This document shows positions 5,436 to 60,474 of a stretch of DNA of 64,000 nt, one piece after another. Position numbers and translations under genes: made by a program. The notes under the pieces were generated by a model. That model was not told where the DNA came from. It saw only the letters and a program-made list of their open reading frames with translations, and did no database searches. Source of the DNA: an uncultured Gemmatimonadota bacterium (GTDB lineage: Bacteria > GCA-2686955); NCBI GenBank assembly GCA_964490075.1, contig CAZBBK010000013.1:1-64000 (forward strand), read 5' to 3'. Numbering within the stretch: position 1 is the stretch's first letter; every line of letters begins with the position of its first letter.

Positions 5436-5738
5436 ATGTCGATGCTGTGCCCCACTCCGCCCGAGCGTCTCCTCGACGCCCGTGGTCGGCCCTACTTCTT
5501 GTGGGATTCAGACATGCCCCTGAAGCGCTTCGAGGAGCTTCTGCGCGACGGCGACGACGTGGTGCGGGCGCATCTGATCGCGAAGCTCATGCGCCAGGCC
5601 AAGCCGGACGATGTCTTCACCTTCGTCTCCCTGAAAGAGATCGGTGAGCTGTGGCCGAACCTGGCCTATCGGTTGGGTCGGACCCGCGACTTCTGGACTT
5701 GGCTGTTGACGCGATGGGGCGTCGTGACCGATGGGTAG
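5436..5738 (+). CDS. Small putative antitoxin partner (YFLWD motif)
   Basis: About 100 aa, RPYFLWD motif, overlaps the start of the downstream nucleotidyltransferase. Confidence 0.7.
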   Translation: MSMLCPTPPERLLDARGRPYFLWDSDMPLKRFEELLRDGDDVVRAHLIAKLMRQAKPDDVFTFVSLKEIGELWPNLAYRLGRTRDFWTWLLTRWGVVTDG

Positions 5739-23177: not shown

Positions 23178-23297
23178 TCTCGGCTCCGGGCTCCGGGTCT
23201 GGCGGGACGGTCGAATTGACCCGCTTATGATGCGAAGACTACGCTTACTATCTTATGTAGTCGTCCCGCGCCCGTGGCTTTTTTTCAGGATTCGCCC

Positions 23298-25022: not shown

Positions 25023-25086
25023 CGCGCAACTTCCGATGCCCCTTGCTCCAGGGCCGGAGCGGGGGCATCTCGCCAAGGAGCCGCCG

Positions 25087-25590
25087 ATGCGATTGATCTC
25101 CGCCCTCGCCCTCAGCCTGACGCTCGCGAGCTTCTGCGCGCCGCCCAGCCACGCCGCCGACAAGATCCCCAACTTCAACCTCGAGAAGATGGATGGGGGG
25201 CGCAGCAAGCTCGCCGACTTCCTCGGCGAAGGCCCGGTGCTGCTGAACTTCTGGGCCACCTGGTGCAAGCCCTGCAAGCAGGAGGCTCCGCACCTGATCG
25301 AGCTCTACGAGGAGTACCGCGAGCGCGGCCTGCAGGTGGTGGCGATCGCCGTCGACGACGTGAGCTCGCAGGCCAAGGTGAAGCCGGCCGCGCGCAAGAT
25401 GGGGCTCACCTATCCCGTGCTGCTCGATCCGAAGGGGCGCTACGCCCAGCGCCTGCAGGCGGCGGCGCTGCCGACCAACGTGCTGCTCGACCGAGACGGC
25501 AACGCGGTGCGCACCTTCACCGGCTACCGCAAAGGCGACGAGCGGGAGATCGCGGCCGAGATCACGAAGCTGCTCACCGCCCAACAGTAG
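25087..25590 (+). CDS. TlpA-family thiol:disulfide oxidoreductase
   Basis: LLNFWATWCKPC; AAGGAG RBS; signal peptide. Confidence 0.92.
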   Translation: MRLISALALSLTLASFCAPPSHAADKIPNFNLEKMDGGRSKLADFLGEGPVLLNFWATWCKPCKQEAPHLIELYEEYRERGLQVVAIAVDDVSSQAKVKPAARKMGLTYPVLLDPKGRYAQRLQAAALPTNVLLDRDGNAVRTFTGYRKGDEREIAAEITKLLTAQQ

Positions 25591-25601
25591 ACGAAGCGCA
25601 C

Positions 25602-27283: not shown

Positions 27284-28321
27284 ATGATCAAGCATGTCTA
27301 CCTGGCTCTGGCCGCGACGGCGAGCATCGCACTGAGCGCCCAGGCCGCCAACGACATTATTCCCCGCTGCGTGGCGATGGAGCTGTTCACGGCTTCCTGG
27401 TGCGGCTACTGCCCCAACGCCGACGCCGGAGCCGAGCAGCTTCGCGAGGAGGAGGGCCGTGCCGGCACGGTCTTCATCGAGTACCACGTCAGCGACGGAT
27501 TGTCGTCGCCGGACGGCAACGCTCGCCAGAGCTACTACGGCGTCACCGGCACCCCGACCATGATCTTCGATGGCATCACCAAGGTGATCGGAGCCGGCGG
27601 TCCGATGTACAACACCTACCGGCAGCGCTTCGACGGCCGTCGCAACTACGATCCGATGGTCGACATCCGCATGACCGGCGACATGACCGGCAACAACACC
27701 TGGAACGTACAGGGTTCCGTCGAGGTCACCCAGCGCATCTGGCAGCAAGGCACGCCCGAGCTGCGCGTTGCCCTGACCGAGAACGACCTGTGGACCGGCG
27801 GCCGGCACTACAACGGTGTGCTGCGCGATCATGTCGCCAACATCGATTTGAACGGCAAGAGCGTCGGTGACGTCACCTACTTCAGCGAGTCGATTCCGAT
27901 CGACGGCTCGTGGAAGAAGGACGATTTGAACATCGTGGTCTACGTGCAGGAGCCGCAGTACCAGGAGATCATCGGCGCCAAGCGGCTCTCCGAAGTGTCG
28001 ATGGACGTGGTCGGCGACAGCTTTACGGTGGCGCGCGGCGACCACCTGATCGTTCCGATCGATCTCGAGAACATCAGCCGCTCGACGCAGAATCTGACCA
28101 TCTGGATGATCGCCTACCGGATGAACGGATCCCAGGTCGGTCCCAATCCGATCTACCTCGACACTTATTCGATCACGTCGGGAGACGCCGACACCTACAC
28201 CCTCGACTACCGAATCCCCGGCGCCGCACCGCTCGGCGACTACCAGGTCGCGGCCTGGATCGGCACCGGCTTGGACGACACCCTGGAGTGGGACAAGTAC
28301 CAGGTGACGATTCAGCCATAG
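27284..28321 (+). CDS. Omp28-like thioredoxin-fold secreted protein
   Basis: ELFTASWCGYCP, IEYH, YYGVTGTPTMIFDG, IVVYVQ. Confidence 0.88.
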   Translation: MIKHVYLALAATASIALSAQAANDIIPRCVAMELFTASWCGYCPNADAGAEQLREEEGRAGTVFIEYHVSDGLSSPDGNARQSYYGVTGTPTMIFDGITKVIGAGGPMYNTYRQRFDGRRNYDPMVDIRMTGDMTGNNTWNVQGSVEVTQRIWQQGTPELRVALTENDLWTGGRHYNGVLRDHVANIDLNGKSVGDVTYFSESIPIDGSWKKDDLNIVVYVQEPQYQEIIGAKRLSEVSMDVVGDSFTVARGDHLIVPIDLENISRSTQNLTIWMIAYRMNGSQVGPNPIYLDTYSITSGDADTYTLDYRIPGAAPLGDYQVAAWIGTGLDDTLEWDKYQVTIQP

Positions 28322-28398: not shown

Positions 28399-31300
28399 GT
28401 GCGCAAGAGCAGGCCCGAATTGCCAGACCAGACACCGACGACCGACAAGAGCGCCGGCGAGAACCCGGCGCCCCCAGGCGTCGACGAGTCGGCCCGGGAG
28501 CCGATTCGCGCCGCGCTGCGCGCGGAGCAGGGAACCCGGGCGTTGGAGCTGCTCGAGGCGATCGATCCGGCGACGCGGGCCGCCGATGGCGAGCTGCTGG
28601 TGCTGGAGGCGCGGGCGCGGGTCGAGTTGGGGAGCGCGGACGAGGCGGTGGCGCTTTATCGCAAGGCGGCGGGGCTGCGGCCGGACGACGCCGGCCTCGC
28701 GCTGGAGCTGGCCCGTCTGCACCTGGTGCTGGAAAAGCGCAAGGCGGCCCTGGGCTGGGCGAGGCGCGCGCGCGACCTCGCCCCCGAAGCGGTCTCGGTG
28801 TCGCTCGCGACCCTGGAGATCTTCGAGCTGCTCGGCGCCCGTTCCGAGGCGCGGGCCGAGGCCGCGCGGGCTCTCGGCAACCACAAGGGCGACGCCAACC
28901 TGCAGGCGCGCCTCGGCATGCTGGCCCAGGTTCACGGCGACCTCGATCTGGCCACCAACGCCCTGGCGCTGGCGGCCGTCGACCGCAACCCCGCGGCCGA
29001 CGCCTTTCTGCCGCTCGGCCTGATCTTCTGGGATCACCTGCGCCGCGCCGAGTTCGCGCGCTCGGTCCATCTGACCAAGCTCTTGCGGCACGGCTCCGAT
29101 CCGCAGAATCTGCGCGAGCTGGGATGGATCGAGCTGCTGGCGGGTGACCGGGCGACCGGGTCGGCGCTGCTGCTGGGCGGACTCGACGCCTTCGAGCAGC
29201 AGCCCGCGGCGCTGATCGTGGAGCAATGGGCGGCGGAAGCCGACAGCCGGCCGATCGACGAGCTGCTCGCCTCGATAGAGCCTCCGCCTCCCGGCATCAT
29301 CCACCGCGGAGCGGCGCTCTTCTTCGCCAACCGCGGCAACCCCGGCCTGGCGGAGCGCTGGCTGCGCGAGGCCGCCACGGTCTTCCCCGACCAGCCGCCG
29401 ATTCGCTACGAGCTGGCGCAGCTCCTCTTCGAGCAGCTCGGCGCGGAGGACGAGGCGATCGAGCAGCTCGACGCGATCGACGCCGAGGGCGACGCCGATC
29501 TGGCCTCCGCGGTCGAGGCGCTGCGCAAGCGCGTGCTCTCCGGCGACAGCGAGGCCGTGGCCGACACCCTGGCGAGCCCGGCGAGTGAGGGGGAGCTGGG
29601 AGTGCTCGGGGTTCACGCCCATGCCCTGGCGGGAGATCCCGCGCGCGGGCTGCACTGGCGTGGCCCCGACGACCTGGTGCTGCGGGTGATGCGGATCCTG
29701 TCGCGTCCGACCCACCGCTCGGTGCTGCTGGCCGGCGAGCCGGGGGTCGGCAAGACCGCCCTTATCATCGAGGTGGCGCGGCGGCTGGCCGACGGCGAGT
29801 GCCCCGAGTCGCTGCGCGGCAACCGGGTCCTGGAGCTTTCGCCGACCGCGTTGCAGACCGACATCAAGTACCTGGGCGAGTGGCAGACCAAGATCACCCG
29901 CCTGGTCGAGGAGGTGCGCCGGGCGCCCGGCACCATCCTCTACATCCCCCGCTTCCATCACCTTCTCGGGGCGGGAGCGACGCGCGCCCACGAGGAGGAC
30001 ATGGCCGGGGCGCTGGCGCCGCTCCTGGCCACCGACCAGCTCACGGTGGTCGCCGGCGGCAACCCCGAGCCGCTCCGGCGTATGCTGCGCAGCCGTCCGG
30101 AGCTCGATCGGGCGTTGACCATGGTCGACGTGCCGGAGCCGACGCGCGGACAGGTGCGGGCGATTCTGCTGGCGGCACGGGGGTGGATCCGCGGCAACGA
30201 AGGGCCGCGCATCGAGTCGGCGGCGGTCGATCGCGCCATCGATCTGTGCGCGACCTTCCTGCGCCACGAACGTTTTCCGGCCAAGGGGATCGACCTGCTG
30301 CGGGCCGCCTACGAGTCGGTGCGTGAGCGGCAGGGCAGCCTGTTGACTCCCGAGGACGTGGCGCGCGAGCTGAGCGCCAAGACCGGCCTGCCGAACTTCC
30401 TGGTGCTCGATTCCGAGATCCTCGACCTGGACCAGACCCGGGCCTTCTTCCGGGAGCGGATTCTGGGACAAGACGAGGCGCTCAGGACCATGCAGGACAC
30501 TGTGGCCCGGATCAAGGCGGGGCTGCAGGATCCGCAGCGGCCGCTGGCTACCTACCTCTTCACCGGACCGACCGGCGTCGGCAAGACCGAGACCGCCAAG
30601 GTCCTCGCGGCCTACCTCTTCGGTGACGAGAAGCGGATTCTGCGCTTCGACATGAGCGAATACTCCGATCCTCTGGCCGTCGATCGCCTGATCGAGTCGC
30701 GCGAGGGGGCGAGCGGCGCGCGCGGGCACCTCACCGGAGCGGTCCGCGAGCACCCGCTCTCGGTCATTTTGCTCGACGAGATCGAGAAGGCTCATCCGCG
30801 GGTCTTCGACCTGCTGCTCCAGGTGCTCGGCGAGGGCCGGCTGACCGACGCCCGCGGCGAGACGGTCGGCTTCCACGAGAGCGTGATCATCATGACCTCG
30901 AACCTGGGCTCCGACCGGGGCGCCGACGGCGGTCTGGGGTTCACGCGCGACCGGGCCGCCGCCGAGGCCGCGGCGATTCGCGAAGAGGTGCAGCGCTTCT
31001 TCCGGCCCGAGTTCATGAACCGGATCGACGACGTGGTGGCCTTCCGCCGCCTCTCGCAGGACGACCTGCGCACGGTCGCGCTGCGCGAGATCGGTCGCTG
31101 CGTGGCGCGCGAGGGGGTGGTGCGCCGGGCGCTGGTGGTCGAGACCGACCCCAGCGTGGCCGACCTGGTGCTCGATCGAGGCCAGAGCGGCCGCTACGGG
31201 GCGCGCGAGCTCAAGCGGGCCGTCGAGCAGCTGGTGGCGGTCCCGCTGGCGCGGCTGCTCTCCGGAAGGGCGATTCCGCCGGACAACACGGTGCGCCTGG

Positions 31301-32433
31301 TGACCCGGGAGGGCTCGGTGGTCGCCGAGATCGTGCCCGACATCGGCGCCGCGCCCAGCCTGGCCGCCAAGGTCGCGGCGCCTGGAGAGCAGCGCTCGTT
31401 GGAGCTGGTCCGGGCCGGAATCGACGACACCACCACGCGCATCGGCCGGCTCGCGGCGACCCTCGGCGTGCCCTCGGCCCAGCGCCGCGCCGAGGAGCTG
31501 CGACGCGAGATGGAGCGCCCTGGCTTCTGGGACGATGCCCGCTCGTCGACCACGACTCTGCGCGCCCTGGCGGAGCAGAATCGGCTGCTGGATCGCGACA
31601 AGGCGATCCGCGTCGAGCTGGAAGAGGTGGGGATGTTGGCCGACCTGGTCGCCGAGGGGCACCGTGAGCTGCTGCCGGAAGCCGGCCAAAAGCTGCGCGA
31701 GATCGAGCTGAAGGTCGAGCAGATGGAGTTGGAGACCCTGCTCTCGGCCCCGGGCGACGCGCGCAGCGCCTACCTGGTCATCACCGCGGGCGACCAGACC
31801 CCCGATGATGTAGCCTGGGTGCGCGAGCTTGCCCGACTCTACGAGCGCTGGGGGACCCGCCGCGGCATGCAGGTGGAGATCGTCGGCGAGCGCAATTTTC
31901 GCGGTTCGACGCGGGGGAGCGCGGTGCTCCAGATCGACGGCGCATTCGCCTTTGGGCTGCTGAGGAGCGAGACCGGAACCCACCGCCGGGTCCAGACGCG
32001 GCCCGACGGTGAGCGCAAGGTGGTGGTGGCCCGGATACAGGTGGTGCCCGAAGCGCAGGACGACCCGCCGCGGCCGCGCGATCTGGCCTTCCGCGCCAGT
32101 CGCTCGTCGAAGACCAAGTTCCTGGCCGCGCCGCGCGGCGTGGTGTCGTTTCGGGCGGCGGATCGCCGCTGGTCGCTGCGCACGCCGCTCGACAGCAGTG
32201 CCGCGGAGCAGTTCGCGTCCAGCTTCGTCGCCGGGCTCTCCGAGTCGCCGGTTCATGACGACGAGCTGGCGACCATCGCCCGCAATCTGTTGCTACAGAA
32301 GCGCCCGAGCGTGCAAGACCCGCGCACCGGACACGAGTCGACCGATGTGCGCGCGGTGCTCGACGGCGAGATCGACGACTTCATCCTCGCCGCGCTCGCG
32401 GCCGAACCTCCCGCGTCGAACCCTGCGTCATGA
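28399..32433 (+). CDS. TPR - ClpA/B-like double AAA+ - release-factor-2-like fusion protein
   Basis: TPR-like N-third; GEPGVGKT and GPTGVGKT, RFDMSEY, LLDEIEKAH, FRPEFMNRID, GARELKR; RF2-like PGFWDD, AFGLLRSETGTHR, DPRTGHES..VLDGEIDDFI. Confidence 0.9.
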   Translation: MRKSRPELPDQTPTTDKSAGENPAPPGVDESAREPIRAALRAEQGTRALELLEAIDPATRAADGELLVLEARARVELGSADEAVALYRKAAGLRPDDAGLALELARLHLVLEKRKAALGWARRARDLAPEAVSVSLATLEIFELLGARSEARAEAARALGNHKGDANLQARLGMLAQVHGDLDLATNALALAAVDRNPAADAFLPLGLIFWDHLRRAEFARSVHLTKLLRHGSDPQNLRELGWIELLAGDRATGSALLLGGLDAFEQQPAALIVEQWAAEADSRPIDELLASIEPPPPGIIHRGAALFFANRGNPGLAERWLREAATVFPDQPPIRYELAQLLFEQLGAEDEAIEQLDAIDAEGDADLASAVEALRKRVLSGDSEAVADTLASPASEGELGVLGVHAHALAGDPARGLHWRGPDDLVLRVMRILSRPTHRSVLLAGEPGVGKTALIIEVARRLADGECPESLRGNRVLELSPTALQTDIKYLGEWQTKITRLVEEVRRAPGTILYIPRFHHLLGAGATRAHEEDMAGALAPLLATDQLTVVAGGNPEPLRRMLRSRPELDRALTMVDVPEPTRGQVRAILLAARGWIRGNEGPRIESAAVDRAIDLCATFLRHERFPAKGIDLLRAAYESVRERQGSLLTPEDVARELSAKTGLPNFLVLDSEILDLDQTRAFFRERILGQDEALRTMQDTVARIKAGLQDPQRPLATYLFTGPTGVGKTETAKVLAAYLFGDEKRILRFDMSEYSDPLAVDRLIESREGASGARGHLTGAVREHPLSVILLDEIEKAHPRVFDLLLQVLGEGRLTDARGETVGFHESVIIMTSNLGSDRGADGGLGFTRDRAAAEAAAIREEVQRFFRPEFMNRIDDVVAFRRLSQDDLRTVALREIGRCVAREGVVRRALVVETDPSVADLVLDRGQSGRYGARELKRAVEQLVAVPLARLLSGRAIPPDNTVRLVTREGSVVAEIVPDIGAAPSLAAKVAAPGEQRSLELVRAGIDDTTTRIGRLAATLGVPSAQRRAEELRREMERPGFWDDARSSTTTLRALAEQNRLLDRDKAIRVELEEVGMLADLVAEGHRELLPEAGQKLREIELKVEQMELETLLSAPGDARSAYLVITAGDQTPDDVAWVRELARLYERWGTRRGMQVEIVGERNFRGSTRGSAVLQIDGAFAFGLLRSETGTHRRVQTRPDGERKVVVARIQVVPEAQDDPPRPRDLAFRASRSSKTKFLAAPRGVVSFRAADRRWSLRTPLDSSAAEQFASSFVAGLSESPVHDDELATIARNLLLQKRPSVQDPRTGHESTDVRAVLDGEIDDFILAALAAEPPASNPAS

Positions 32434-40737: not shown

Positions 40738-42162
40738 ATGGACAGGACGATCGACTGGGGTTCGATACGCTGCGCGCGATCGGTCCCGCTGATGGTAGGG
40801 GCGTTGCTCCTGGGACTTCCGGCATTTTCCTCGGGCGCCGCGACGAACTCCGCGTCGCCGCGTCTGCGCCGGGTTCCCCAGGACTATCAGACGATTCAAT
40901 CGGCGGTCACCGCGGCATCGGCGGGCGACGTGGTCGCCATCCTGCCGGGGACCTATGTGGAGGATGTCGCCGGCATCGACCTTCCTCTGACCTTGCTCCC
41001 GCAGCCCGGTCCCGGTGCCGAGACCGGCCGGCCCGTCACCATCCGAGGCACCGGCAGCTGCACCGTCCTGACCATCGACCCGGTCGACGAGGGCGAAGTG
41101 GCGCTGATCGGGCTGCGAATCACCGGGGGGCATTCCAAGTGGTCCGCCGGTGGCATCGATTGCCGGGGCGCCGCCCTGACTTTGCGGCGCTGCTCGGTCG
41201 ATGCCAACCGGTCTTCTCTCGGCGGCGGAGGCATCAAGGTGGTCGATGCCGCCTTGGAGATCGAGGACTGCGAGATCACCAACAACGAGCTGCGCGGGCT
41301 GTGGGACAGCAGTGCTCGAGGTGCTGGTGTGTACGCATCGAGCTCGATCGTTCGCATAAGGCGATCGTCGGTCGACGGCAACTCGATCGAAATCCGTCAA
41401 GTCGCCGATGGGGTCGAGACGCTTGGCGCCGGCCTGTGCGCCGTCGATTGCGAGCTGGACGTCCGCGAAAGCAGCTTCAGCCACAACGTGGGCCGCACCG
41501 ACGTCGTGCGCGGAGCTGGAGTGCACGTCGACGGCGGCAGCGCGTCGTTCCATGACGTGCGGATCGACTGGAACATCGCCCGCGCAACCAACACGGCAGA
41601 GAACACCGCCCCGGACGGCAGCGTGTTGCGCTTCTGGTCGCCCTGCCGGGCGGAGCTGGCTCATTGCACGGTGGTGGGCAATCGCGCCAGCTCGCCCACG
41701 GGGAGTTGGGTGGCGGCGACGGATCGGTCGGCCGGCCAGTTGCTCGACGGAGACACTTCGTTGCGCCTGGTGGGCACGATCGTCTGGAACAACGGACCGA
41801 AGATGGTGCAGGGGCCCGACGACGCGATCATCGGCTGGTCGCTGCTCCCGGGGGTCCACGTCGGACCTGGCAACATCACCGGCGATCCACGCCTGGCGAG
41901 CGGCGCCCGGGCGCTGCCCTACCTGTTGCTCCCCGGCTCGCCCTGCATCGACGCCGGCCCCCCGGCGCGGCAGGACGCGATATTCGACTCCCATCCGCGC
42001 TGGCCCGAGGACATCCCCAACGGTGCCAGGGCCGATATGGGCGCCTATGGAGGACCAGGAAACGACATTTGGCGCGCCCTGATCGGCGAATCAGGCGGTG
42101 TCCCCCCCATCTTCCTCCTCGAGCCACTTCCGTTTCAGATGGTAGACGTCGAAAATATGTAG
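40738..42162 (+). CDS. Secreted right-handed parallel beta-helix protein
   Basis: RRVPQDYQTIQSAV, GDVVAILPGTY, C-terminal DSHPRWP..PNGARADMGAYGGPGN. Confidence 0.87.
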   Translation: MDRTIDWGSIRCARSVPLMVGALLLGLPAFSSGAATNSASPRLRRVPQDYQTIQSAVTAASAGDVVAILPGTYVEDVAGIDLPLTLLPQPGPGAETGRPVTIRGTGSCTVLTIDPVDEGEVALIGLRITGGHSKWSAGGIDCRGAALTLRRCSVDANRSSLGGGGIKVVDAALEIEDCEITNNELRGLWDSSARGAGVYASSSIVRIRRSSVDGNSIEIRQVADGVETLGAGLCAVDCELDVRESSFSHNVGRTDVVRGAGVHVDGGSASFHDVRIDWNIARATNTAENTAPDGSVLRFWSPCRAELAHCTVVGNRASSPTGSWVAATDRSAGQLLDGDTSLRLVGTIVWNNGPKMVQGPDDAIIGWSLLPGVHVGPGNITGDPRLASGARALPYLLLPGSPCIDAGPPARQDAIFDSHPRWPEDIPNGARADMGAYGGPGNDIWRALIGESGGVPPIFLLEPLPFQMVDVENM

Positions 42163-42946: not shown

Positions 42947-43023
42947 TGGCACACCCGCAGGGATTCGAACCCCGAACCTCCTGATCCGTAGTCAGGTGCT
43001 CTATCCAATTGAGCCACGGGTGC
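42947..43023 (-). tRNA. tRNA-Arg(ACG)
   Basis: GCACCCG acceptor, anticodon loop CTACGGA, GTTCGAATC, encoded CCA. Confidence 0.97.
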
Positions 43024-43109: not shown

Positions 43110-43138
43110 TTGACAGCGAACCCCCAAACGCCTATAAT
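43110..43138 (+). promoter_or_regulatory. Consensus sigma70 promoter
   Basis: TTGACA-17nt-TATAAT, perfect match. Confidence 0.9.
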
Positions 43139-43190
43139 ATCGTGCGCTTGTAGAGAATTGAGCCCCCACTCCTGGATTGAGAGTACCAGC

Positions 43191-45173
43191 ATGAAAAGCC
43201 TCTGGCTCCCGCTGCCCATCGCCCTTTCGCTCATCACGCCGGCCCAGTCGGTGGAGCGAATCGTGCTGGCGGAGATGTTCACCAACAACAGCTGACCCTC
43301 CTGCCCCGAAGCCAACCGTGAGTTGGACGATCTGATCGAAGCCCATCCCGATCGCCTGAAGGTGATCCGTTACCACATGTCGTGGCCTGGTCCCTTCGAC
43401 CCCTTCTACCTGGCCAACACCGAAGAGAATGACGCCCGCAGGTCGTACTACGGCCTGAACTTCGTGCCCAATCTGTGGTACGACGGCGTCGCGAACCCCG
43501 GCGCCCAGGTCGCCATGTATGAATCATGGCTGCTGACGCGTCTCGCCAACGAGAGCTCGATGATCGTCGACACGGCCATCGACAACGCCTACCTGTCGGT
43601 CGACCTGGAAGCGGTCGACGCGGTTGCGGGCGATCTGAAACTGATGGCGGTGATCGTCGAGAACCAGGCCCAGGACGGAGCCAAGCTCTACGACCAGGTC
43701 ATGCGTCGCTTCATCGGCGGCACCAGCGGCCTCGGTTTCACGATCAGCGAGGGGGAGAGCCAGTCGTATCTGTTCGACTTCGACGTCGATCCGAGCTGGA
43801 ACCCCGACAATCTCGAAATCGTCGTCTTCGTGCAGAGTGTTGCGACCAAAGAGGTGATCCAGGCCGACGCCACGGCGATCGGCTTCGCCATGCCCAAGCT
43901 GGCCCTGCTGGGCGCGGAGGTGGACGACGGCGCCGGCGGTGACGGCGACGGCCGTCTGGAGGCGGGCGAGAGCGCCGACCTGATCGTCACCCTGGAAAAT
44001 ATGACTCCATGGGCCGACGCCAGCGACATCGAGATCGTGCTCGACAGCGACGATCCCGACCTGACCATCACCGATGCGAGCGCCACGATCCCGGCGATCG
44101 TTTCCGGCGGCAGCGAATCGAGCACGGTCGATCCGATCGGCGTCGAGCTCGCGTCGGGGGCGAGCCCGCATAATGCGCTGCTCGATTTCACCATCACCGC
44201 CAATGGCGGCACTTTCCAGCGCACGGCGCAGCTCTCGATGCTGATGGGACATCCGGAGCTGCTCCTGGTCGACGACGACGGCGGCGGCGATACGCAGGCA
44301 GCCTACACCGCGACCCTGGACAGTCTGGAGAAGGTCTACGAGCACTGGGACCTCAGCGTCGCGGGGCTGCCGGCGGGCGATTTCTACCAGTCCGCGAAGA
44401 ACGTGATCTGGTTCACCGGCGAGGTCGAGGAGGGCGGCTTCACGGCCGACGAGCTCACCTTCTTGCAACAGATTTTCGACTCGAAGCGCGGCCTCTATTT
44501 GTCGGGATTGGCAAACGCTGAAGGCCTGAGCCAGACCCAGCTGCTCGCGGAGCTCTTCGGGGCCGAAGCGCTTGCCGCGGGTGGTGGGCCCGTCATCGAA
44601 GGCGAGCCTGGTGATGCCATCGGTGATTCGCTGCTCATACTGCTGGATCACGATCCCGTGATCGCCGAGGTGGTGGTGCCGACCGGATCGGGTGTCGCGA
44701 TGATGCACTATCTGCCGGGCGGAGAAGGCGCGGGCGTCCACAATCAGAGCGGCGGCAAACGATCGGTCTTCACCGCCTTCGATTTCTCCGTGGTCGGCGC
44801 GGAACATCGTCCGCTCTTGATGAGCAGGATCCTGGACTGGTTCGAGCAGACGACGGGCGTCGCCGAGGGCGAAGACGCGCCGCCGGCTCCGCTGGCGGGT
44901 GTCACTCTGCGCAACACGCCCAATCCCTTCAACCCCACGACCAAGATCGCCTTCACCTTGCCGCGGGCGGCGCCGGTCGAGCTCTCGATCTACGATCTCC
45001 GCGGACAGCGGGTGATCACGCTGCTCGACGAGGAGCGGCCCGCCGGCGCGCACGCCGTGGCCTGGACGGGAGAGAACAGCCGGGGTGTCGGCGTGGCCAG
45101 CGGTGTGTATGTGCTGCGCATGGAGGCCGAAGGGTTCGGCTCGACGGACCGGAGGATGGTGCTGTTGAAGTAG
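43191..45173 (+). CDS. Probable selenoprotein: Omp28-like thioredoxin fold (UxxC) with Ig-like and FlgD-Ig C-terminal domains, 660 aa
   Basis: Signal peptide, then LAEMFTNNS-TGA(43293-43295)-PSCPEA in frame with ORF 43323..45173; TGA aligns to the first Cys of the paralogs' CxxC. Confidence 0.8.
43312..43326 (+). promoter_or_regulatory. Candidate bacterial SECIS apical hairpin
   Basis: CCAAC-CGTGA-GTTGG starting 16 nt after the UGA, G early in the loop. Confidence 0.55.
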
Positions 45174-46849: not shown

Positions 46850-47911
46850 TTGATTCTGTCGAACGACCCGTCTACCGATGAGCGCCCCGGCTCACCCGAA
46901 GCCGCCCTGTCCGCTCCGCGGATCGCCATAATCCCACTGCGCTCGGTGCCGCCCCTCGAAGTCCTCGGCAGCCGCGACATCTACCTCAAACAGATCAATT
47001 CCGAGTTCGGCGCTCGGGTCTCGGCGCGCGGCGACGAGATCCTGGTGCAGGGGGCCGAGCAGGACGTGTCGGAGGTGGAGAGCGTCGTCGAGCATCTGAT
47101 CGAGCTGGTGTCGACGGGCACGCCCCTTTCGCGCCAGCGCGTGCGCTACGCGATCGAGATGGTCCGCGACCAGCGGGCCCCCGAGCTCTCGCAGCTGGTG
47201 ACTCCCTCGGAGCCGCTGCGACCCACCTCGGGCGCCGGTACGGTGGTGCCGAAGACCGTCAACCAGCAGGCCTATGTCGATGCGATCCGTGCCCACGACA
47301 TCGCCCTCGGAATCGGTCCGGCGGGAACCGGAAAGACTTACTTGGCGGTCGCTTGCGCCGTCGAAGCCCTGACTCGCAAAGAGGTCGATCGGATCATCCT
47401 CACGCGGCCCGCGGTAGAGGCCGGCGAGTCGCTCGGCTACCTGCCCGGCGACCTGCGCGACAAGGTCGATCCCTATCTGCGACCGCTCTATGATGCGCTC
47501 GGCGTGATGATGCCGATGGAGCGGGTCAATCGTTTGATGGAAAATGGCACCATCGAGGTCGTGCCGCTGGCCTACATGCGCGGCCGCACCCTGAACCGCT
47601 GCTTCATCATCCTCGACGAAGGCCAGAACGCGACTCGACTGCAGGTCAAGATGTTCCTCACGCGGCTCGGAAGCGCCGCCAAGGCGGTGATCACCGGTGA
47701 TATCACTCAGGTCGACCTGGCCGACCGCAGCAAGTCAGGACTGATTCATGCCCGCACCATCCTGGCCGACATTCCCGGCATCGCGATCGTGGAGTTCGCC
47801 GACGGCGACGTGGTCAGGCATGCGCTGGTGCGGCGCATTCTGGGCGCCTACGAGCGTGACGAGCAGGGTGAGGACAGCCAGCTCTCTGGGCTCACGGAGT
47901 TCGATGACTGA
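46850..47911 (+). CDS. phoH: PhoH-family protein (YbeZ-like)
   Basis: GPAGTGKTYLA, LTRPAVEAGE, PLAYMRGRT, TGDITQVDL. Confidence 0.95.
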   Translation: MILSNDPSTDERPGSPEAALSAPRIAIIPLRSVPPLEVLGSRDIYLKQINSEFGARVSARGDEILVQGAEQDVSEVESVVEHLIELVSTGTPLSRQRVRYAIEMVRDQRAPELSQLVTPSEPLRPTSGAGTVVPKTVNQQAYVDAIRAHDIALGIGPAGTGKTYLAVACAVEALTRKEVDRIILTRPAVEAGESLGYLPGDLRDKVDPYLRPLYDALGVMMPMERVNRLMENGTIEVVPLAYMRGRTLNRCFIILDEGQNATRLQVKMFLTRLGSAAKAVITGDITQVDLADRSKSGLIHARTILADIPGIAIVEFADGDVVRHALVRRILGAYERDEQGEDSQLSGLTEFDD

Positions 47912-52001: not shown

Positions 52002-53251
52002 TCGTGCTGATGCTGATCGCCGTGGCCTTCGCCGCCTCGTTCTTCTTCGCCGGAACCGAAACCGCGTTTACCACTTTGAACCGGCTGCGCATCCGCACCT
52101 GGTCGGAGGGACAGGGGAGCCGGGCTCGGGCCGCGCGCTCGGTGCAGGAGTTCACCGCGGAGCCCGACCGCTTTCTCACCACCACCCTGGTGGGCAACAA
52201 CATCGCGATCGTGGCAGTGACCGCTCTGGTCGGCTTCCTGCTCGAGCGCAAGCTTGCCGGCGGCGAGTTCGAAGCGTTGATCGACCTGGTCGGTGTGCTG
52301 CTGGTCACGCCGGCGCTCCTGGTGTTCGCGGAGATCATCCCCAAGTCGCTGGCGCGGCGCTACCCCAACCGCACCGCGCTGATCGCCATCAAGCCGCTGC
52401 GCGCCCTCCACTGGGTGTTGCGGCCGGTGGCCTGGATCCTCGGGGCGATCGTCGCCCGTTTGCAGAGTGCCTTCCGCCTGCCTGCCGGCGCCGGTCGCTT
52501 CGCCCTGCGGCGCGAAGACGTGCTCGATCTGCTGCGCGGCACCGACGATGGCGAAGCGCCCGATGAGGAAGACAAGATCATCTCCGGGATCCTCGATTTC
52601 GGCAGCACCACCGTTCGCGAGGCGCTGACCCCGCGCACCCGCCTGGTCTGTCTCGACGTCGACGCCGGCGAGGAGGAAGTTCTGGAGGTGATCTCCAGCG
52701 GTCGTTTCTCGCGCCTGCCGGTCTTCAAGGAAGACCTGGACCACATCGTCGGCACGGTGCACGCGCGCGATCTACTGCTCGCCTCGCGCTCCGGCCCGAT
52801 TCGTCTCGAATCGCACCTGCGCAAGGTCCACTTCGTGCCGGAGCAGAAGAAGGCCGACGAGTTGCTCGAGGAGCTGAAGGCGCGCAAGGAGCACCTGGCC
52901 GTGGTGCTCGACGAGCACGGCGGCACCGAGGGGATCGTCACGCTCGAAGATCTGCTCGAGCTGCTGGTGGGTGACATTCGCGACGAGCACGACGCGCCCG
53001 ACGAAGTGTTGCGACCGATCGACGAGCGCGCCTGGACCGCCAAGGGCTATATCGAGCTCGACGATCTCGAGGAGCGCATCGGCCTGGAGCTGCCCGAGGG
53101 GCTGTACGAGACCCTCGGCGGCTACGTGATCGACACGCTCGGGAGGATCCCGCGCAAGGGCGAGGTGGTGCTGGCGCCGGGGGCGCGTATCACGGTGCTC
53201 AAGGCGTCGGATCGTGCGGTGGAGCTGTTGCGGCTGGACTTGTTGGACTGA
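51998..53251 (+). CDS. CNNM/CorC (hemolysin-family) CBS protein 2
   Basis: FAGTETA, LVGNNIA, FAEIIPK, LDEHGGTEG. Confidence 0.92.
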   Translation: MIVLMLIAVAFAASFFFAGTETAFTTLNRLRIRTWSEGQGSRARAARSVQEFTAEPDRFLTTTLVGNNIAIVAVTALVGFLLERKLAGGEFEALIDLVGVLLVTPALLVFAEIIPKSLARRYPNRTALIAIKPLRALHWVLRPVAWILGAIVARLQSAFRLPAGAGRFALRREDVLDLLRGTDDGEAPDEEDKIISGILDFGSTTVREALTPRTRLVCLDVDAGEEEVLEVISSGRFSRLPVFKEDLDHIVGTVHARDLLLASRSGPIRLESHLRKVHFVPEQKKADELLEELKARKEHLAVVLDEHGGTEGIVTLEDLLELLVGDIRDEHDAPDEVLRPIDERAWTAKGYIELDDLEERIGLELPEGLYETLGGYVIDTLGRIPRKGEVVLAPGARITVLKASDRAVELLRLDLLD

Positions 53252-53277
53252 TTTCGGCGGAAGCCGAAAGGCTCTCG

Positions 53278-53306
53278 TTGACAGTGCGACAGCACAACCT
53301 TACATT
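53278..53306 (+). promoter_or_regulatory. Promoter/operator of vapBC
   Basis: TTGACA-17nt-TACATT with GTGC-N4-GCAC palindrome in the spacer. Confidence 0.65.
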
Positions 53307-53315
53307 CTAGATGTC

Positions 53316-53564
53316 ATGGCTTCGATCAAGCAGATCACCATTCGCAACCCATCCGCCGAGCTGGTGGCGGCCCTCAGGGCCGTTGCGCAGGAGCGAGGCG
53401 AGAGCCTCAACGCGACCATCCTGAGACTTCTCGAGGACGTGCTCGGGGTAGACGAGCGCCGTCGTCGCCTCGAGCGATATGCGAGCTGGACATCCGCGGA
53501 CTTCGACGAGTTCCGCGATGCCCTGCGCGCCCAGCGTGTGATCGATCCGGATCTCTGGGCGTAG
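53316..53564 (+). CDS. vapB: RHH (FitA/VapB-like) antitoxin
   Basis: KQITIRN..ELVAALRAVAQERGESLN; directly upstream of PIN gene. Confidence 0.8.
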   Translation: MASIKQITIRNPSAELVAALRAVAQERGESLNATILRLLEDVLGVDERRRRLERYASWTSADFDEFRDALRAQRVIDPDLWA

Positions 53565-53567
53565 TCC

Positions 53568-53972
53568 GTGGCGCCGTCGAAGCTGGCACTCGATACCTCT
53601 GCCTACTCGCACTTGCGTGTCGGTCACGAAGAGGTCATGGAGTTGGTCGCGCGAGCGGCGATCGTCTCGTTGCCGGCGACGGTGTTGGGAGAGCTCGAGG
53701 CGGGCTTTCTACTGGGCAGCCGCTACCGAGAGAACAGCATTGCTTTGGCGGAGTTCCTCGCCGAGCCCTTCGTCCGCGTACTGCCGGTCACACCGTCCGT
53801 CGCGACGCGATACGGCAGAGCTTTCTCACAGCTTCGTCGGGCCGGAACACCGATTCCGGTGAACGACATCTGGATCGCCGCGGCGACCCTCGATGCCGGC
53901 GCTCACCTCATCACCTTCGATGCCGATTTCGGCCGAGTGCCGGGATTGGAGCACACGCTGCTGAAGGGCTGA
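53568..53972 (+). CDS. vapC: PIN-domain toxin
   Basis: LDTSAY, GELEAG, PIPVNDIWIAA, LITFDADF. Confidence 0.93.
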   Translation: MAPSKLALDTSAYSHLRVGHEEVMELVARAAIVSLPATVLGELEAGFLLGSRYRENSIALAEFLAEPFVRVLPVTPSVATRYGRAFSQLRRAGTPIPVNDIWIAAATLDAGAHLITFDADFGRVPGLEHTLLKG

Positions 53973-54319: not shown

Positions 54320-55104
54320 ATGACTCGCCAGCTTCTCATCCCCCGATCCCGCGGCATCGCCGCGGCGCTTCCCCTCGCCGCGACCATCGCACTGCGCCAG
54401 AGCTCTCCGGCCCGGGCCGGCGGGATCGACCGGGTCTTGCGCTCAGAGGAGGGCCGAGAGGCGACCCTGATCGACAGCGAAGGCGAAGCGCGCGGGCTCT
54501 ACGGCTGGTACTCCTCACCGACGTTCGTGGGCTGCACGATCTCTAGCAACACTTGCGGGGACGAGTGGGGCGGCGGGATCGCTTGTGTGGGTGGAGTCGT
54601 GACGCTGCGTGATTGTGAGATCTCGGACAATCTGGCGGGGGATGCCGGCGGAGGTCTGTACGCGGAGCAGGGCCAGGTGACATTGGACGGCTGCACGGTA
54701 AAGAGGAACGCGACGGCAGGTAGCTTTGATTGGCATCGAGGCGGCGGGGATCGAGGAGCGGCAGAGGATTGTGCTGATCCGATGAGATCGAGCGTGAGCA
54801 CGGGTCTTGTCACCGGCCGCTTCGCGCTGATCCTCCTCCCTCAAGGGTTCGCGCAGAAGTAGCTTTCGGGTCTTCTGCGCAGTCGCCGACAGCAGCGGGG
54901 ATGCTGACCACGCGATCTTTGTGCGATTCCGCGAAGACGCCACCCTCAGCAACTGCATATTTTGCCACTGGCAACGACTGGAGAAGAGCGGACATGGGAG
55001 CCTTCGGCGGGCCTGGGAATCGCGGGTGGGTGCCGGGTGATTGTGAGAAGAGTGTCTTCGTTCCGGAAACGGCGGGAACGGTGGCGGAAGACGGCAGTCG
55101 ATAG
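54320..55104 (+). pseudogene. Fragmented beta-helix family gene
   Basis: AAAGGAG RBS plus signal peptide, LRSEEGREATLID, GGGI repeats, then frame-shifted ATLSNCIF and RADMGAFGGPGNRGW pieces. Confidence 0.72.
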
Positions 55105-56551: not shown

Positions 56552-57306
56552 GCGGCGCGTTGCTGGAGCTGGAAGGGATCGTCTGCGGCCGGCGCCCGAT
56601 CGGCGAGACCAGCCTGCTGGTGACCGTGCTGAGCGAGCGCAGGGGCAAGCTCACCCTCTATGCCCGCGGCGCGCTGCGCGACTACCGGCGCATCGGCGGG
56701 GCGCTCGATACCGGCGCGCGCAGCGCCTGGTGTCTGCTGCAGCGCCCCGGCGGCGATCGGCTCCCCATGGTCCAGCAGGTCGACCTGGTCGACGCCCACC
56801 CCGCGCTGCGCCGCGACCTGGGCCGGCTGCTGCGCGCTCTCTTCCTGATCGAGGTGGTGCGGCTCCACTACGGCGCCGGGGGGGCGCTCTACGAGCACCT
56901 GGCCGCCGGCCTGGCGGCGGTCGATCGACGGCCCCGTACCGGACGCGGCTTTCTGTGGTGGTTCGTGACCCGGATGCTGGAGCTTTCGGGGCATGCGCCG
57001 CTGCTCGACCATTGCGTCGGCTGCGAGCGCGACGCCGACCTGGTCGGGCTCGATCCCAACGCCGGTGGCGTGATCTGCCGCCGCTGCGCCGCGCCCTCCG
57101 CGCCCCCTCTGCCCCTCGGCGTCGAGGCGCTGCGGGTGCTGCGCGCCCTCTCCGCGGTGGATGGTGTCGATCCCCGGGCCGCCCAGCGCGTCGGCAAGAT
57201 CGGCGCCCGCCAGGTCGCCGCCGCGCTCCGGGCCTGCATCACCTGGCCGGTCGGTGGCGACGTCGCGCTGCCGGCGCTCGACACCCTGCAACGCTACGGG
57301 GCCTGA
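56548..57306 (+). CDS. recO: DNA repair protein RecO
   Basis: GETSLLVTVLSERRGKL..ARGA OB-fold; CxxC...GGVICxxC zinc motif. Confidence 0.85.
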   Translation: MSGALLELEGIVCGRRPIGETSLLVTVLSERRGKLTLYARGALRDYRRIGGALDTGARSAWCLLQRPGGDRLPMVQQVDLVDAHPALRRDLGRLLRALFLIEVVRLHYGAGGALYEHLAAGLAAVDRRPRTGRGFLWWFVTRMLELSGHAPLLDHCVGCERDADLVGLDPNAGGVICRRCAAPSAPPLPLGVEALRVLRALSAVDGVDPRAAQRVGKIGARQVAAALRACITWPVGGDVALPALDTLQRYGA

Positions 57307-57307
57307 G

Positions 57308-59377
57308 ATGTTGACGGCTCTGATCCTCTCCGCCGCGCTCTGCGCCGCGCCCCCGCTGGTGTCGATCCACGCCGGCGGCGCGCGCCCCCGGACGGTCGAT
57401 TGCGAACCCTGCCTGGCGCGCTGGGATCTCGACGATCTGGGAACCACGCTGCTGGCCGGTCCGGTCCCGGGCGATGCCCCGGTCGACAGCGCGCAGTGGC
57501 GGCTCGATCCCCTGCACGACGACGCCGTGGTGCGCGGCCTGGCGCTCGGCTTCCCCTTCCCCTTCTACTACGACCGCTACGACAGCGTCGCGGTCGGCGT
57601 GAACGGCTTTCTGAGCTTCCTCGGCAACGACCTGCCCTCGATCGCCGGGGATCGACCGGCGCCCCTGCCCTGCCCGATCCAACCGCACGCCATCGTCGCC
57701 CCCTTCTGGTCCGACCTGGTGCTGGGCGGCGAGGGGACGCTCTACTTCAAGGCCGGGGCCGATTCGGCGGTGGTCGAGTGGCATCGCCTGCGGGATGTCT
57801 CTGGGGACGGGCCCTACACCTTCCAGGTGCGGCTGCTGCCGAGCGGCGCGATCCGGCTGATCTGGATCGAGCTGCCGGCGACCCTCGCCGAGCACGTGGT
57901 CGGTCTGGGCGATGCCCGAGGCATAGACGGGATGAGCATCTCGGAAACGCCGGGCGCCGGAGCCGCCCTCACCCTGACCCGCCCGGTCCAGCTCGAGGGG
58001 CTGGCGGCGCTCGAGATCTCCTCGCCGGTGCATGGCCTGACCCTCGGCGAGGAGCTGGCGCCCGAGATAGTGGTGGCGAATCCCGGCACCACTTCGATCG
58101 CCGCGGACGCGGCGCTGGTCGTCACCCGCCTCGCCGACTCGGTGGTGGTGGCTGGCCTCGAGCCGGCGCTCGCCGTCGACGTGGCGGCCGGCGGGCAGGC
58201 GACGTTTGCGATGGAGGAGTGGACTCCGTCTCGGACCGGGCGCTACCGACTCGAAGCGACCATTCGCCCCGCCCTGGCCCTCGACCGGCTCGAGGCGGAG
58301 GTGCTGGCGAGCGGCCCGCGCGACACGGTTGCCGCCCTGGGCGGCTTCAAGGCGACCGAGCCGGCCGACGCCTTCGCGCTGCTCGACCCGGGCGAGTGGG
58401 CGATCCGTTTCCTGCCGGACACGTTGGCGGAGACCGAGGCGGCGCTGGTCCGGGTGTCGTTCTGGGAGGGATGGCCCGATACCGAGGGCCAGGTGTTCGA
58501 GGTGGAGCTCTTCGCTACCGGTTCGGGCGGCGGTCCCGCCGAGAGCGGGCTCCATGCACCGGTGACCGCTACCGGTGCGGCTGGTTTCGTGGCGGTGCCT
58601 CTGCCCGAGGGGATCGTCGTCGGCGACACCATTTTCGTGGTGCTGCGCCAGCTTCTGCCCTTTCCCGACTGCGACGGAATAGTGTCCGACGCAGACCAGA
58701 AGATCACGCTCTATCCGCGCCACTGGGCGCGGTCGTGCGCCCAGAGCACCTGGCAGAAGCTCGAGGCATCCGACCTGCTCGGCGATCTCTTCGTCGAGCT
58801 CTACCTGGCCAGTCCGGTGGGAGTGGCCGCGGGGGCGCCGGGGGCTCCGCGAGTGCGATCGGTAGCTGGGGGCAAGGTCGAGATCTCGTGGGAGCGCGTG
58901 ATGGACGCGCGGGGCTATTCCGTGCTGCGCTCGGCGCCCGCCGCTGGCCCGTGGAGGGTGGTGGCCGAGCTCGCGGCCACCGAGACGCGCCACTTCGACG
59001 AGCCGCCCCCCACCGCCCAGACGCTGCGCTACGCCGTGGCCGCGATCGACGCCGCGGGATTGGCGCGCATCTCACCGGGCGTCGAGATGCGCTTCGGCGG
59101 CCCGCGTCTGCTTCCCCCGTCCCCCGTCCCAGCCAATCCGCGCGTCACCATTCGTGCTGATCTGCCCGCCGGCGCCGACCAGGCATCACTCGCGGTCTAC
59201 GACCTCGGCGGGCGCGTGGTTCGCATCTTGCAGCGCGGGAATCTGTCCCCCGGCGTACATCGTTTCGCGTGGAATGGCGAGCACGATGGCGGCCGCCCCG
59301 TCCCCTCTGGCGTCTACCTGGTGCGGCTCGAAGCCGACGGCGTGGTCGATACGCGAAGGGTTATCATTTTGAGATGA
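57308..59377 (+). CDS. Secreted multidomain protein (nidogen-like, FN3-like, FlgD-Ig C-terminus)
   Basis: LGFPFPFY..NGFLSF, IVAPFWSDL; YDLGGRVVR..WNG..SGVYLVRL. Confidence 0.8.
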   Translation: MLTALILSAALCAAPPLVSIHAGGARPRTVDCEPCLARWDLDDLGTTLLAGPVPGDAPVDSAQWRLDPLHDDAVVRGLALGFPFPFYYDRYDSVAVGVNGFLSFLGNDLPSIAGDRPAPLPCPIQPHAIVAPFWSDLVLGGEGTLYFKAGADSAVVEWHRLRDVSGDGPYTFQVRLLPSGAIRLIWIELPATLAEHVVGLGDARGIDGMSISETPGAGAALTLTRPVQLEGLAALEISSPVHGLTLGEELAPEIVVANPGTTSIAADAALVVTRLADSVVVAGLEPALAVDVAAGGQATFAMEEWTPSRTGRYRLEATIRPALALDRLEAEVLASGPRDTVAALGGFKATEPADAFALLDPGEWAIRFLPDTLAETEAALVRVSFWEGWPDTEGQVFEVELFATGSGGGPAESGLHAPVTATGAAGFVAVPLPEGIVVGDTIFVVLRQLLPFPDCDGIVSDADQKITLYPRHWARSCAQSTWQKLEASDLLGDLFVELYLASPVGVAAGAPGAPRVRSVAGGKVEISWERVMDARGYSVLRSAPAAGPWRVVAELAATETRHFDEPPPTAQTLRYAVAAIDAAGLARISPGVEMRFGGPRLLPPSPVPANPRVTIRADLPAGADQASLAVYDLGGRVVRILQRGNLSPGVHRFAWNGEHDGGRPVPSGVYLVRLEADGVVDTRRVIILR

Positions 59378-60474
59378 GATCATTCACGCTTCCATTCGCT
59401 CTCGTTTCCGCGGCCGGTGCCGCGACCCTCCGCGTGCCGGCGGATTTCCCGACCCTCCAGGCGGCCATCGACGCCGCCGCGGACGGCGACATCGTGCAGG
59501 TCGCCCCCGGCACCTACTCGGGCGCCGGCAACAGAGATATCGACTTTCTCGGCAAGGCGATCTCTCTGCGCTCCGAAGAGGGCGCGGAAGCGACCGTGGT
59601 CGACTGCGAGGGCGCCCCGGACGATCCCCATCGCGGCGTGCTCTTCGTCACCGGCGAGGGCCCCGCGGCGTCGCTGCGCGGCTTCACCATTCGCGGCGGC
59701 TACGTGCGCGGCGACTGGCCGGCGGGGGACGGCGGCGGGATCTTCTGCGACGGGGCATCGCCGACCATCGAGCACTGTGTCGTGAGCGACAACTCCGCCT
59801 CGTTCGGCGGAGGGATCAGCTGCACCAATGAGTCCTCCCCCGAGATCCATCGCTGCACCATCACCCGCAACGAGGCGGCCGACTCTGGCGGCGGCACCTA
59901 CAACTGGTACCTGTCGAATCCGCTGCTGAGCCACTGTGTCATCAGCGAAAACCGCGCCGGATTCGGCGCGGGGCTCTACCTGCGACAGCGCATGAGCGTG
60001 GTCAACTGCGTGATCGCGGACAACCACGCCGACTACTACGGCGGAGGCGTCCGCTGCGCGGACCTCGCTTCTCCGACGCTTCATAACTGCACCATCACCG
60101 GCAACAGCGCCTTCGAGGGCGGGGGCATCTACGCCAGCTCCTATGGCCATCCGTCGGTCACGAACACCATTCTCTGGGGCGACCAGCCCGACGAGATCTA
60201 CAACTACGCCGGTAACTGTCTCTTCAGCCATTGCGACATCGAAGGAGGCTGGCCGGGGGTCGGCAACATCGACGCCGAGCCCATGTTCCTCTCCTACCGC
60301 GGCCACGACCATCTGCTCGGAGCCGCCTCGCCCTGCGTCGATGCGGGCGATCCCGCGTTCGAGGACCAGCTCTACGACTGGCATCCACGCTGGCCAGCCG
60401 GCTTCCCCAACGGCGTTCGTTGCGACATCGGCGCCTACGGCGGGCGCCGGAACGCAGCCTGGGTTGGGTTCTAG
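59374..60474 (+). CDS. Secreted right-handed parallel beta-helix protein
   Basis: LRVPADFPTLQAAID, DFLGKAI, C-terminal DWHPRWP..PNGVRCDIGAYGG..N..W. Confidence 0.9.
   Translation: MRSFTLPFALVSAAGAATLRVPADFPTLQAAIDAAADGDIVQVAPGTYSGAGNRDIDFLGKAISLRSEEGAEATVVDCEGAPDDPHRGVLFVTGEGPAASLRGFTIRGGYVRGDWPAGDGGGIFCDGASPTIEHCVVSDNSASFGGGISCTNESSPEIHRCTITRNEAADSGGGTYNWYLSNPLLSHCVISENRAGFGAGLYLRQRMSVVNCVIADNHADYYGGGVRCADLASPTLHNCTITGNSAFEGGGIYASSYGHPSVTNTILWGDQPDEIYNYAGNCLFSHCDIEGGWPGVGNIDAEPMFLSYRGHDHLLGAASPCVDAGDPAFEDQLYDWHPRWPAGFPNGVRCDIGAYGGRRNAAWVGF

Follow-up and report, generated by a model that had tools for sequence, protein, structure and literature searches.

A probable selenocysteine codon in an Omp28-like gene with a C-terminal sorting-like domain from an uncultured Gemmatimonadota bacterium

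The window examined here, that is, the whole stretch of 64,000 nucleotides from the start of contig CAZBBK010000013.1 of an uncultured Gemmatimonadota bacterium (GenBank assembly GCA_964490075.1), contains a gene for an Omp28-like protein whose frame is interrupted by an in-frame TGA, the putative codon for a selenocysteine (Sec) residue (Table 1). A first-pass annotation of the same sequence had described a perfect TTGACA-17-TATAAT promoter, an ATG at 43191, a signal peptide and, beyond the TGA, 625 further in-frame codons, and each of these was recovered. The promoter matches the sigma-70-type consensus at 12 of 12 positions and is the only such motif in the window at one mismatch or fewer, with 0.01 expected on the basis of 100 shuffles; it is predicted to be active. 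In the 660-codon frame that follows, the TGA at codon 35 is the sole interruption, the translation reading MKSLWLPLPIALSLITPAQSVERIVLAEMFTNNS, then TGA, then PSCPEANRELDD..., with EMFTNNS-U-PSCP as the residues around the TGA. The N-terminal residues, MKSLWLPLPIALSLITPAQS, form a hydrophobic leader as judged by eye and probably constitute a cleavable signal peptide; leaders were also seen in all nine of the Sec-encoding relatives described below.

The coding signal is strong on both sides of the TGA, with a G+C content at third codon positions (GC3) of 0.93 before it, 0.77 after it, and 0.85 over the full 625 downstream codons. In a scan of all TGA codons in the window, this was the only one with such a signal on both sides. 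A TGA at 60587, entertained as a second recoding candidate, was rejected as the end of one gene followed by the start of the next, and the remaining rows of the scan likewise reflected gene ends and starts or off-frame composition, so that no second candidate remained in the window. Since TGA closes 21 of the 41 Pfam-supported open reading frames (ORFs) in the window, where it acts as an ordinary stop, a changed genetic code is not the explanation. The first-pass annotation had also held that the ORF caller splits the gene, which is borne out by public predictions that start just past the motif, such as P0002 (TTG 43323), a truncated product of 616 residues that is 100% identical to the window protein and is predicted on 2 contigs.

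Behind the leader, the N-terminal domain is thioredoxin-like as judged by sequence profiles. Its best NCBIfam match is NF045500, "Omp28-related selenoprotein" (63.3 bits; E = 2.6e-17; residues 18 to 230), followed by an Omp28 lipoprotein family, while the Pfam Omp28 family (PF11551) matched residues 84 to 230 only marginally (35.4 bits; gathering threshold, 34.9) and DUF1223 stayed below its cut-off (19.7 versus 30.7 bits). A profile built from 43 homologues and compared with the PDB matched 2axo (the DUF1223 protein Atu2684; E = 1.6e-8), 5y1a (HBP35; E = 6.8e-7) and 2r2c (Omp28; E = 2.1e-6), as well as thioredoxins, e.g., 1fo5 (E = 1.3e-4). In the alignment of these 43 sequences (A4), the columns E28, C35, C38, P93 and G99 are invariant, and P93 could be the cis-proline of thioredoxins. 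The middle region of the window protein had no Pfam match at E values up to 10 and no PDB match by sequence, and the lone DUF4159 row in the Pfam search of this region (E = 0.16) came from one related locus, L002; the region is common to the public proteins P0003 to P0007 and P0009 and to the loci L001 and L002. At the C terminus, FlgD_ig (PF13860) matched residues 582 to 647 with 38.3 bits (cut-off, 27), and TIGR04183, the type A sorting domain of the T9SS (type IX secretion system), was barely over its cut-off (23.5 versus 23 bits), with PF18962 remaining below (16.4 versus 27 bits). No Por (T9SS) components were found among the Pfam matches of the window.

A main part of the evidence for the Sec assignment is the residue that homologues have at codon 35. 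A HMMER scan with residues 1 to 240 against 1.84 billion representatives returned 4774 relatives at E ≤0.001, and the best 150 of these were combined with the matches of a separate public-protein search, duplicates being counted once, to give a set of 157 homologues. Column 35 is covered by 146 of them, and 142 of these 146 have cysteine (Cys) at both positions 35 and 38, in line with the earlier claim that the UGA occupies the first Cys of a CxxC pair; the remaining four read D/C, S/C, S/D and D/C. The Cys pair sits in a conserved E-x-F-T-N-x-x-C-x-x-C block, of which the window TGA takes the first Cys, and the frames of the Cys homologues run uninterrupted across this position. Two paralogues within the window behave in the same way, as the first-pass annotation had noted: the ORF with its ATG at 23298 reads ELMTATWCTYCP, with WCTYCP at the matching place, and the ORF at 27284 reads ELFTASWCGYCP, with WCGYCP there. 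A further 11 of the 157 homologues start within about 20 residues past the motif, which is the output expected from gene finders when a TGA occupies it; public predictions of such proteins begin at a TTG, GTG or ATG shortly past the motif. P0003, P0007 and P0058 all start at the residue aligned to L45, the TTG start in the window, and P0003, cut at this same residue, is 61% identical to the window protein. P0005, P0006, P0010, P0116, P0121, P0129 and P0154 are N-truncated as well.

At the DNA level, the TGA turned out to be shared. We scanned species-representative genomes with a single pattern, DPFYLANx[EA], derived from a 6-sequence alignment, which samples part of the family and gave 32 loci; since none of these was a 100% match, the genome of the window itself lies outside the representatives scanned. 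An in-frame TGA stands at the first Cys of the motif in 9 of the 32 loci, and TGC or TGT stands there in the other 23. In all nine Sec loci, the upstream frame is open to a start codon and begins with a hydrophobic leader (again by eye); their full products comprise 356 to 690 residues, and the majority carry a FlgD-Ig/T9SS-type tail. They belong to four named phylum-level groups, namely, Gemmatimonadota (L001, L005 and L007), TA06 (L002 and L006), Eisenbacteria (L018) and Neomarinimicrobiota (L030 and L031), and to one unclassified bacterial metagenome-assembled genome (MAG) (L011). The closest, L001, from a Gemmatimonadetes MAG, shows 54% identity over 660 aligned codons and reads EIFTNSG-U-PSCP. 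The exception is L011, whose motif, C-G-U-A-A-C, has the U two residues further on. L007, on a Gemmatimonadota chromosome (CP070758.1), holds two tandem Sec paralogues (L007:1045 and L007:3055); the NCBI protein P0009, "Omp28-related outer membrane protein", is an N-truncated call of the first of these, with the in-frame TGA present upstream in the DNA. In a quick FastTree built from the N-terminal domains, with support values left uninspected, the window gene shared one clade with L001 and with P0003, which is truncated, and Sec forms were scattered over six or more separate points among the Cys forms; Cys and Sec appear to have been exchanged repeatedly.

One of these loci also links the family to the Sec machinery. 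L006, from TA06 bacterium SM23_40, encodes a tRNA-Sec at 183 to 278 (found by ARAGORN; Rfam RF01852, 77.7 bits, gathering threshold 47) and a selD gene (TIGR00476, 355 bits, cut-off 125) that has an in-frame TGA of its own, in TCAG-U-ASK. The Omp28-like Sec gene, with its start at about 1766, follows this pair (L006:183-1470) directly on the downstream side, making this a small selC-selD-selenoprotein cluster.

Downstream of the window TGA, the first-pass annotation had pointed to a CCAAC-CGUGA-GUUGG hairpin and taken it, with its early loop G and in combination with the UxxC/CxxC pairing, for the signature of bacterial Sec insertion. The hairpin begins 16 nucleotides past the TGA and has a 5-bp stem, and its loop starts 21 nucleotides past the TGA, with G-U at loop positions 2 and 3. 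The model of the bacterial Sec insertion sequence (bSECIS) that is presented in PMC13188914 specifies a loop of 3 to 9 nucleotides, an upper stem of 4 to 16 bp, a G as the first or second loop nucleotide, 16 to 37 nucleotides from UGA to loop, and a minimum free energy (MFE) of at most -7.5 kcal/mol. The window hairpin fits in its loop (5 nucleotides), stem (5 bp), loop-2 G and spacing (21 nucleotides). In our own implementation of this published model, 9 of 11 Sec genes passed, as did 7 of 26 Cys genes, and the window gene and L007 failed. A positioned-hairpin criterion that was set post hoc (stem of at least 5 bp, loop 20 to 26 nucleotides past the U, G as the first or second loop nucleotide) selected 9 of 10 TGA genes and none of the 23 Cys genes; among shuffles, it selected 13% (885/6600). 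Both Sec paralogues of L007 share GGACCCCCGTGTGGCGGTCC past the TGA, and the criterion missed it in the copy tested. Over 57 nucleotides, MFE z-scores separated Sec from Cys genes weakly (P = 0.14; raw MFE, P = 0.03). An identical hairpin stands in L001, and L002 and L006 have longer stems that are in register with it, 92% of the cells of this common helix being paired; in L030 and L031, the stem reaches 8 bp, versus 5 bp in the window gene. The six hairpin codons GCC AAC CGT GAG TTG GAC (ANRELD) are the same in the window gene and in L001, and no run of identical codons in the two genes is longer; elsewhere, the codon is shared at only 182 of 343 (53%) identical residues with degenerate codons. 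The six include two minor codons, CGU (8.8% of Arg) and UUG (9.2% of Leu; 32 window genes). We count this apparent constraint at the RNA level in favor of the Sec assignment.

Several observations weigh against that assignment. Of the proposed insertion signature, position and loop G held up, but the energy of the stem, -5.1 kcal/mol (or -5.4 if a lower stem of 2 bp is included), misses the bSECIS threshold of -7.5, and the pairing probability is 0.35. The MFE z-scores of the region (+0.84, +0.87 and -0.17) are no better than those of shuffles, and shuffling the same 67 nucleotides 2000 times gave a comparable hairpin in 162 cases; because of this weak energy, the shuffle-like folding and the frequency of similar hairpins in shuffles, the window hairpin is not evidence on its own. 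It gains weight alongside the hairpins of the relatives. The helix shared by the window gene, L001, L002 and L006 is, for its part, devoid of compensatory changes, and its conservation could stem from the protein motif A-N-x-x-L-D. Rfam gave no match at the hairpin, a permissive scan of 43150 to 43450 yielding chance snoRNA-like rows. The NF045500 score of the window protein lies well under the curated cut-off of 200 bits. Finally, selA, selB, selD and tRNA-Sec are absent from the 64-kb window, over the whole of which Rfam found three tRNAs (two Ser, one Arg) and nothing else.

The weakness of the hairpin, and the fact that no Sec machinery was seen for the window genome in the 64 kb viewed, would also suit an explanation in which the TGA is a nonsense mutation in a pseudogene of recent origin or else an error made in sequencing or assembly; one base change turns TGC or TGT into TGA. 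We nevertheless regard this as very improbable, given that the TGA stands at the same codon in L001, at 54% identity, and in eight more loci, that the 61%-identical P0003 is cut at the same residue and P0002 is predicted on 2 contigs, and that the 625 downstream codons are intact with their GC3 of 0.85. Alternatively, the UGA might be read through without selenium, by a near-cognate Trp or Cys tRNA or by Sec machinery loading Cys, yielding a mature protein without Sec. Insertion of Cys at Sec-UGA codons is possible under selenium shortage, and a weak hairpin could mean inefficient or unconventional recoding. Still, the UGA has been kept over long evolutionary distances exactly at the catalytic Cys column, together with a positioned hairpin, and in L006 the UGA gene lies beside selC and selD; for these reasons Sec fits and leaky termination does not, and we give selenium-free readthrough just as little credence as a mutation or an error. 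Least credible of all is that the gene finders are right and that the gene starts at TTG 43323, the upstream 34 codons being a separate short leader or untranslated: although translation table 11 yields exactly this ORF and P0002 has the same 616 residues, such a product would lack a signal peptide despite its export-type C-terminal domain and would lack both active-site residues that are invariant in the family, and the 34 codons show a GC3 of 0.93, hold the conserved R-x-V-L-x-E-x-F-T-N block that is continuous in 146 homologues, and correspond to a frame that is open in all nine Sec loci.

In summary of this weighing, the gene very probably encodes one exported protein of 660 residues in which UGA codon 35 is read as Sec, an assignment whose main support is the Cys/Sec comparison, together with the relatives that keep the TGA (nine loci, including the nearest), and not the window hairpin. 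On this assignment, transcription would start from the consensus promoter and translation at ATG 43191, and a SelB-type factor carrying Sec-tRNA(Sec) would be recruited at the UGA by the stem-loop, a recruitment that we infer for the window organism. The leader would route the chain through the Sec translocon. The U35-P-S-C38 center of the thioredoxin-like/Omp28-like domain might then act as a selenol/thiol-disulfide oxidoreductase outside the cytoplasm, and the FlgD-Ig/T9SS-type tail might take the protein to the cell surface or anchor it there, in the manner of HBP35; redox activity, substrate and surface location of the window protein are all putative.

Omp28-like UxxC selenoproteins are a kind known since 2008. 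NF045500 corresponds to the "hypothetical protein GOS_C" (Zhang and Gladyshev, 2008, PMC2398784; Table 1 of PMC13188914), a family for which PMC2398784 gives 74 sequences with Sec and 312 with Cys, a fold of the thioredoxin type, UxxC, SECIS-like elements and no known function. Like that family, the window protein has a thioredoxin-like N terminus with U-x-x-C followed by an Omp28-like region, and many Cys homologues. Its U35 shares an alignment column with the U of L030 and L031, two near-members of NF045500 (175 and 171 bits, respectively, when scored with C for U, both under the cut-off of 200). Unlike NF045500/GOS_C, however, it measures about 660 residues and contains an extra region of about 340 residues without a recognized family, and the two near-members branch apart from it in the quick FastTree. 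Because of its score (63 versus 200 bits), its larger architecture and its weaker hairpin, we file it as a divergent, uncurated, multidomain member and not as NF045500 itself. The earlier description of a large exported multidomain selenoprotein with such a tail as unusual was therefore overstated, since NF045500 is a known kind and its near-member L031 carries a T9SS-type tail as well. A literature search found no paper joining "Omp28" with "selenoprotein" and none on T9SS-tailed selenoproteins, the search covering papers without their supplements (e.g., Dataset S2 of PMC2398784, with the GOS_C sequences).

Among characterized proteins, the closest analogue is HBP35 of Porphyromonas gingivalis (PDB 5y1a), which likewise has a thioredoxin-like CxxC after E-x-F-T, an Omp28-like part and a C-terminal Por/T9SS surface-attachment domain. 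Thioredoxin activity of recombinant HBP35 was reported to need its two Cys residues, and the protein binds hemin and occurs in a modified form on the cell surface (PMC2907840). HBP35 differs in having Cys instead of Sec and in its length of 344 residues. Secretion of HBP35 is reportedly Por dependent (PMC3120885). The best solved-structure relative by profile, 2axo (Atu2684, DUF1223), shares the motif E-L-F-T-S-x-x-C-x-x-C-P, but it and 2r2c (Omp28) alike are Cys proteins that consist of a single domain and have neither the middle region nor the C-terminal sorting domain. The DsbA-like, TlpA/thiol:disulfide interchange-like and DsbG-like UxxC selenoproteins with a thioredoxin fold that are listed in Table 1 of PMC13188914 are also exported, with Sec replacing the first Cys of the CxxC in a domain resembling thiol-disulfide oxidoreductases; these are, however, other families, and TlpA-like proteins occur in the window in Cys forms only, beside the Cys paralogues.

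More tentatively, the window gene might represent an uncurated, deep-branching clade of multidomain cell-surface selenoproteins, characterized by a UxxC thioredoxin/Omp28-like domain, the region of about 340 residues and a FlgD-Ig tail, although we are more inclined to doubt this than to assert it. If it were true, the gene would work with a minimal 5-bp SECIS of less than the stability set by the bSECIS model, and a working element of that size would imply either a SelB with relaxed demands or an unrecognized class of SECIS. The energy threshold of the model would reject a gene that is strongly supported by the Cys/Sec comparison, which makes it a marginal test case for SECIS models. Public protein sets list this gene and its relatives with both the signal peptide and the active site missing, as in the case of P0009. 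Taken as a whole, the result is a sound re-annotation within a known family; it would enlarge the selenoproteome of sparsely sampled phyla such as Gemmatimonadota, TA06 and Eisenbacteria by a large redox protein that is probably exposed at the surface, and it connects the function-unknown GOS_C family to a characterized analogue and to the recurring set of TlpA-like redoxin, DUF6029 and Omp28-like genes described below.

Table 1. Features of the putative selenoprotein gene and of the redox gene cluster in the window
Feature	Position	Strand	Remarks
Sigma-70-type promoter	43110..43138	+	TTGACA 43110-43115, 17-nt spacer, TATAAT 43133-43138; 12/12 consensus matches
Full coding sequence	43191..45173	+	660 codons including one putative Sec-UGA, then TAG 45171-45173; translated with TGA = U
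Signal-peptide-like N terminus	43191..43250	+	Residues 1-20; judged by eye
Thioredoxin-like and Omp28-like domain	43251..43895	+	Residues ~21-235; NF045500, Pfam Omp28 and PDB profile matches
In-frame TGA, codon 35, proposed Sec	43293..43295	+	Cys column in homologues, TGA in relatives
TGC, Cys38, second residue of U-x-x-C	43302..43304	+	Invariant column
SECIS-like hairpin	43312..43326	+	CCAAC 43312-43316, loop CGUGA 43317-43321, GUUGG 43322-43326
Truncated ORF of gene finders (table 11)	43323..45173	+	616 residues; TTG start within 3' arm of hairpin
Middle region, no recognized family	43896..44906	+	Residues ~236-572, ~340 residues
C-terminal FlgD-Ig/T9SS type A sorting-like domain	44919..45170	+	PF13860, TIGR04183
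TlpA/ResA-like redoxin	22620-23177	-	Part of the Cys-form redox cluster
Omp28-like protein with FlgD-Ig tail	23274-25022		Redox cluster, Cys form
TlpA/ResA-like redoxin (second)	25036-25590		Redox cluster
DUF6029 protein	within 25263-27263		Redox cluster
Omp28-like protein	27284-28321		Redox cluster, Cys form

The Sec gene itself is solitary, being flanked by an opposite-strand pair of tRNA-Arg and SpoU methylase genes and by an unassigned ORF. The tRNA-Arg(ACG) gene (42947-43023, minus strand) lies 87 nucleotides upstream of the promoter; in L031, a tRNA-Arg(ACG) gene (4871-4945), within a Gln-Arg-Glu tRNA group, is found just 3' of the Sec gene, which may be a coincidence. The two Cys paralogues belong to a redox cluster (Table 1). 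L030 and L031 again show the succession redoxin, DUF6029, Omp28-like, there with the Sec form of the Omp28-like gene, and a DUF6029 gene also precedes the tandem Sec pair of L007. This recurrence suggests that Omp28-like proteins may work with a periplasmic thiol-disulfide oxidoreductase and the DUF6029 protein; that the latter is an outer-membrane protein is our guess. Other neighbors of Sec forms include a protein with a metallo-beta-lactamase fold and a rhodanese domain, resembling persulfide dioxygenases (L011:5224-6309), and, in L002 (1-2136 and 5045-6691), genes for cytochrome c maturation (CcmA/B/C) and for a heavy-metal P-type ATPase.

Elsewhere in the window, the gene at 28399 to 32433 (plus strand) encodes an odd protein in which a Clp-type ATPase is fused to the N-terminal portion of an RF2-like protein, its 1344 residues comprising TPR at the N terminus, two AAA+ modules resembling those of ClpA/ClpB and, at the C terminus, the PCRF domain of release factors; the prfB model matched residues 1009 to 1222 with 142 bits over the first 219 of its 353 positions. 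Many proteins with right-handed beta-helix or Chlamydia-PMP repeats are encoded (6472-7887 on the minus strand, 11474-13462, 40738-42162, 54320-54862 and 59269-60474), and a FlgD-Ig/T9SS-type tail is found on one more protein, 57161-59377, the organism being seemingly rich in exported proteins with such tails. Toxin-antitoxin-like genes comprise an AbiEii nucleotidyltransferase (5731-6405) and a pair at 53214 to 53972 in which a FitA-like ribbon-helix-helix protein precedes one with a PIN domain. The lineage of the window appears to be poorly sampled: the best named relatives of its PhoH protein (46850-47911), from Omnitrophica, Gemmatimonadetes, Latescibacteria and Firmicutes, are 51 to 56% identical, and a few others reach 63 to 81%.

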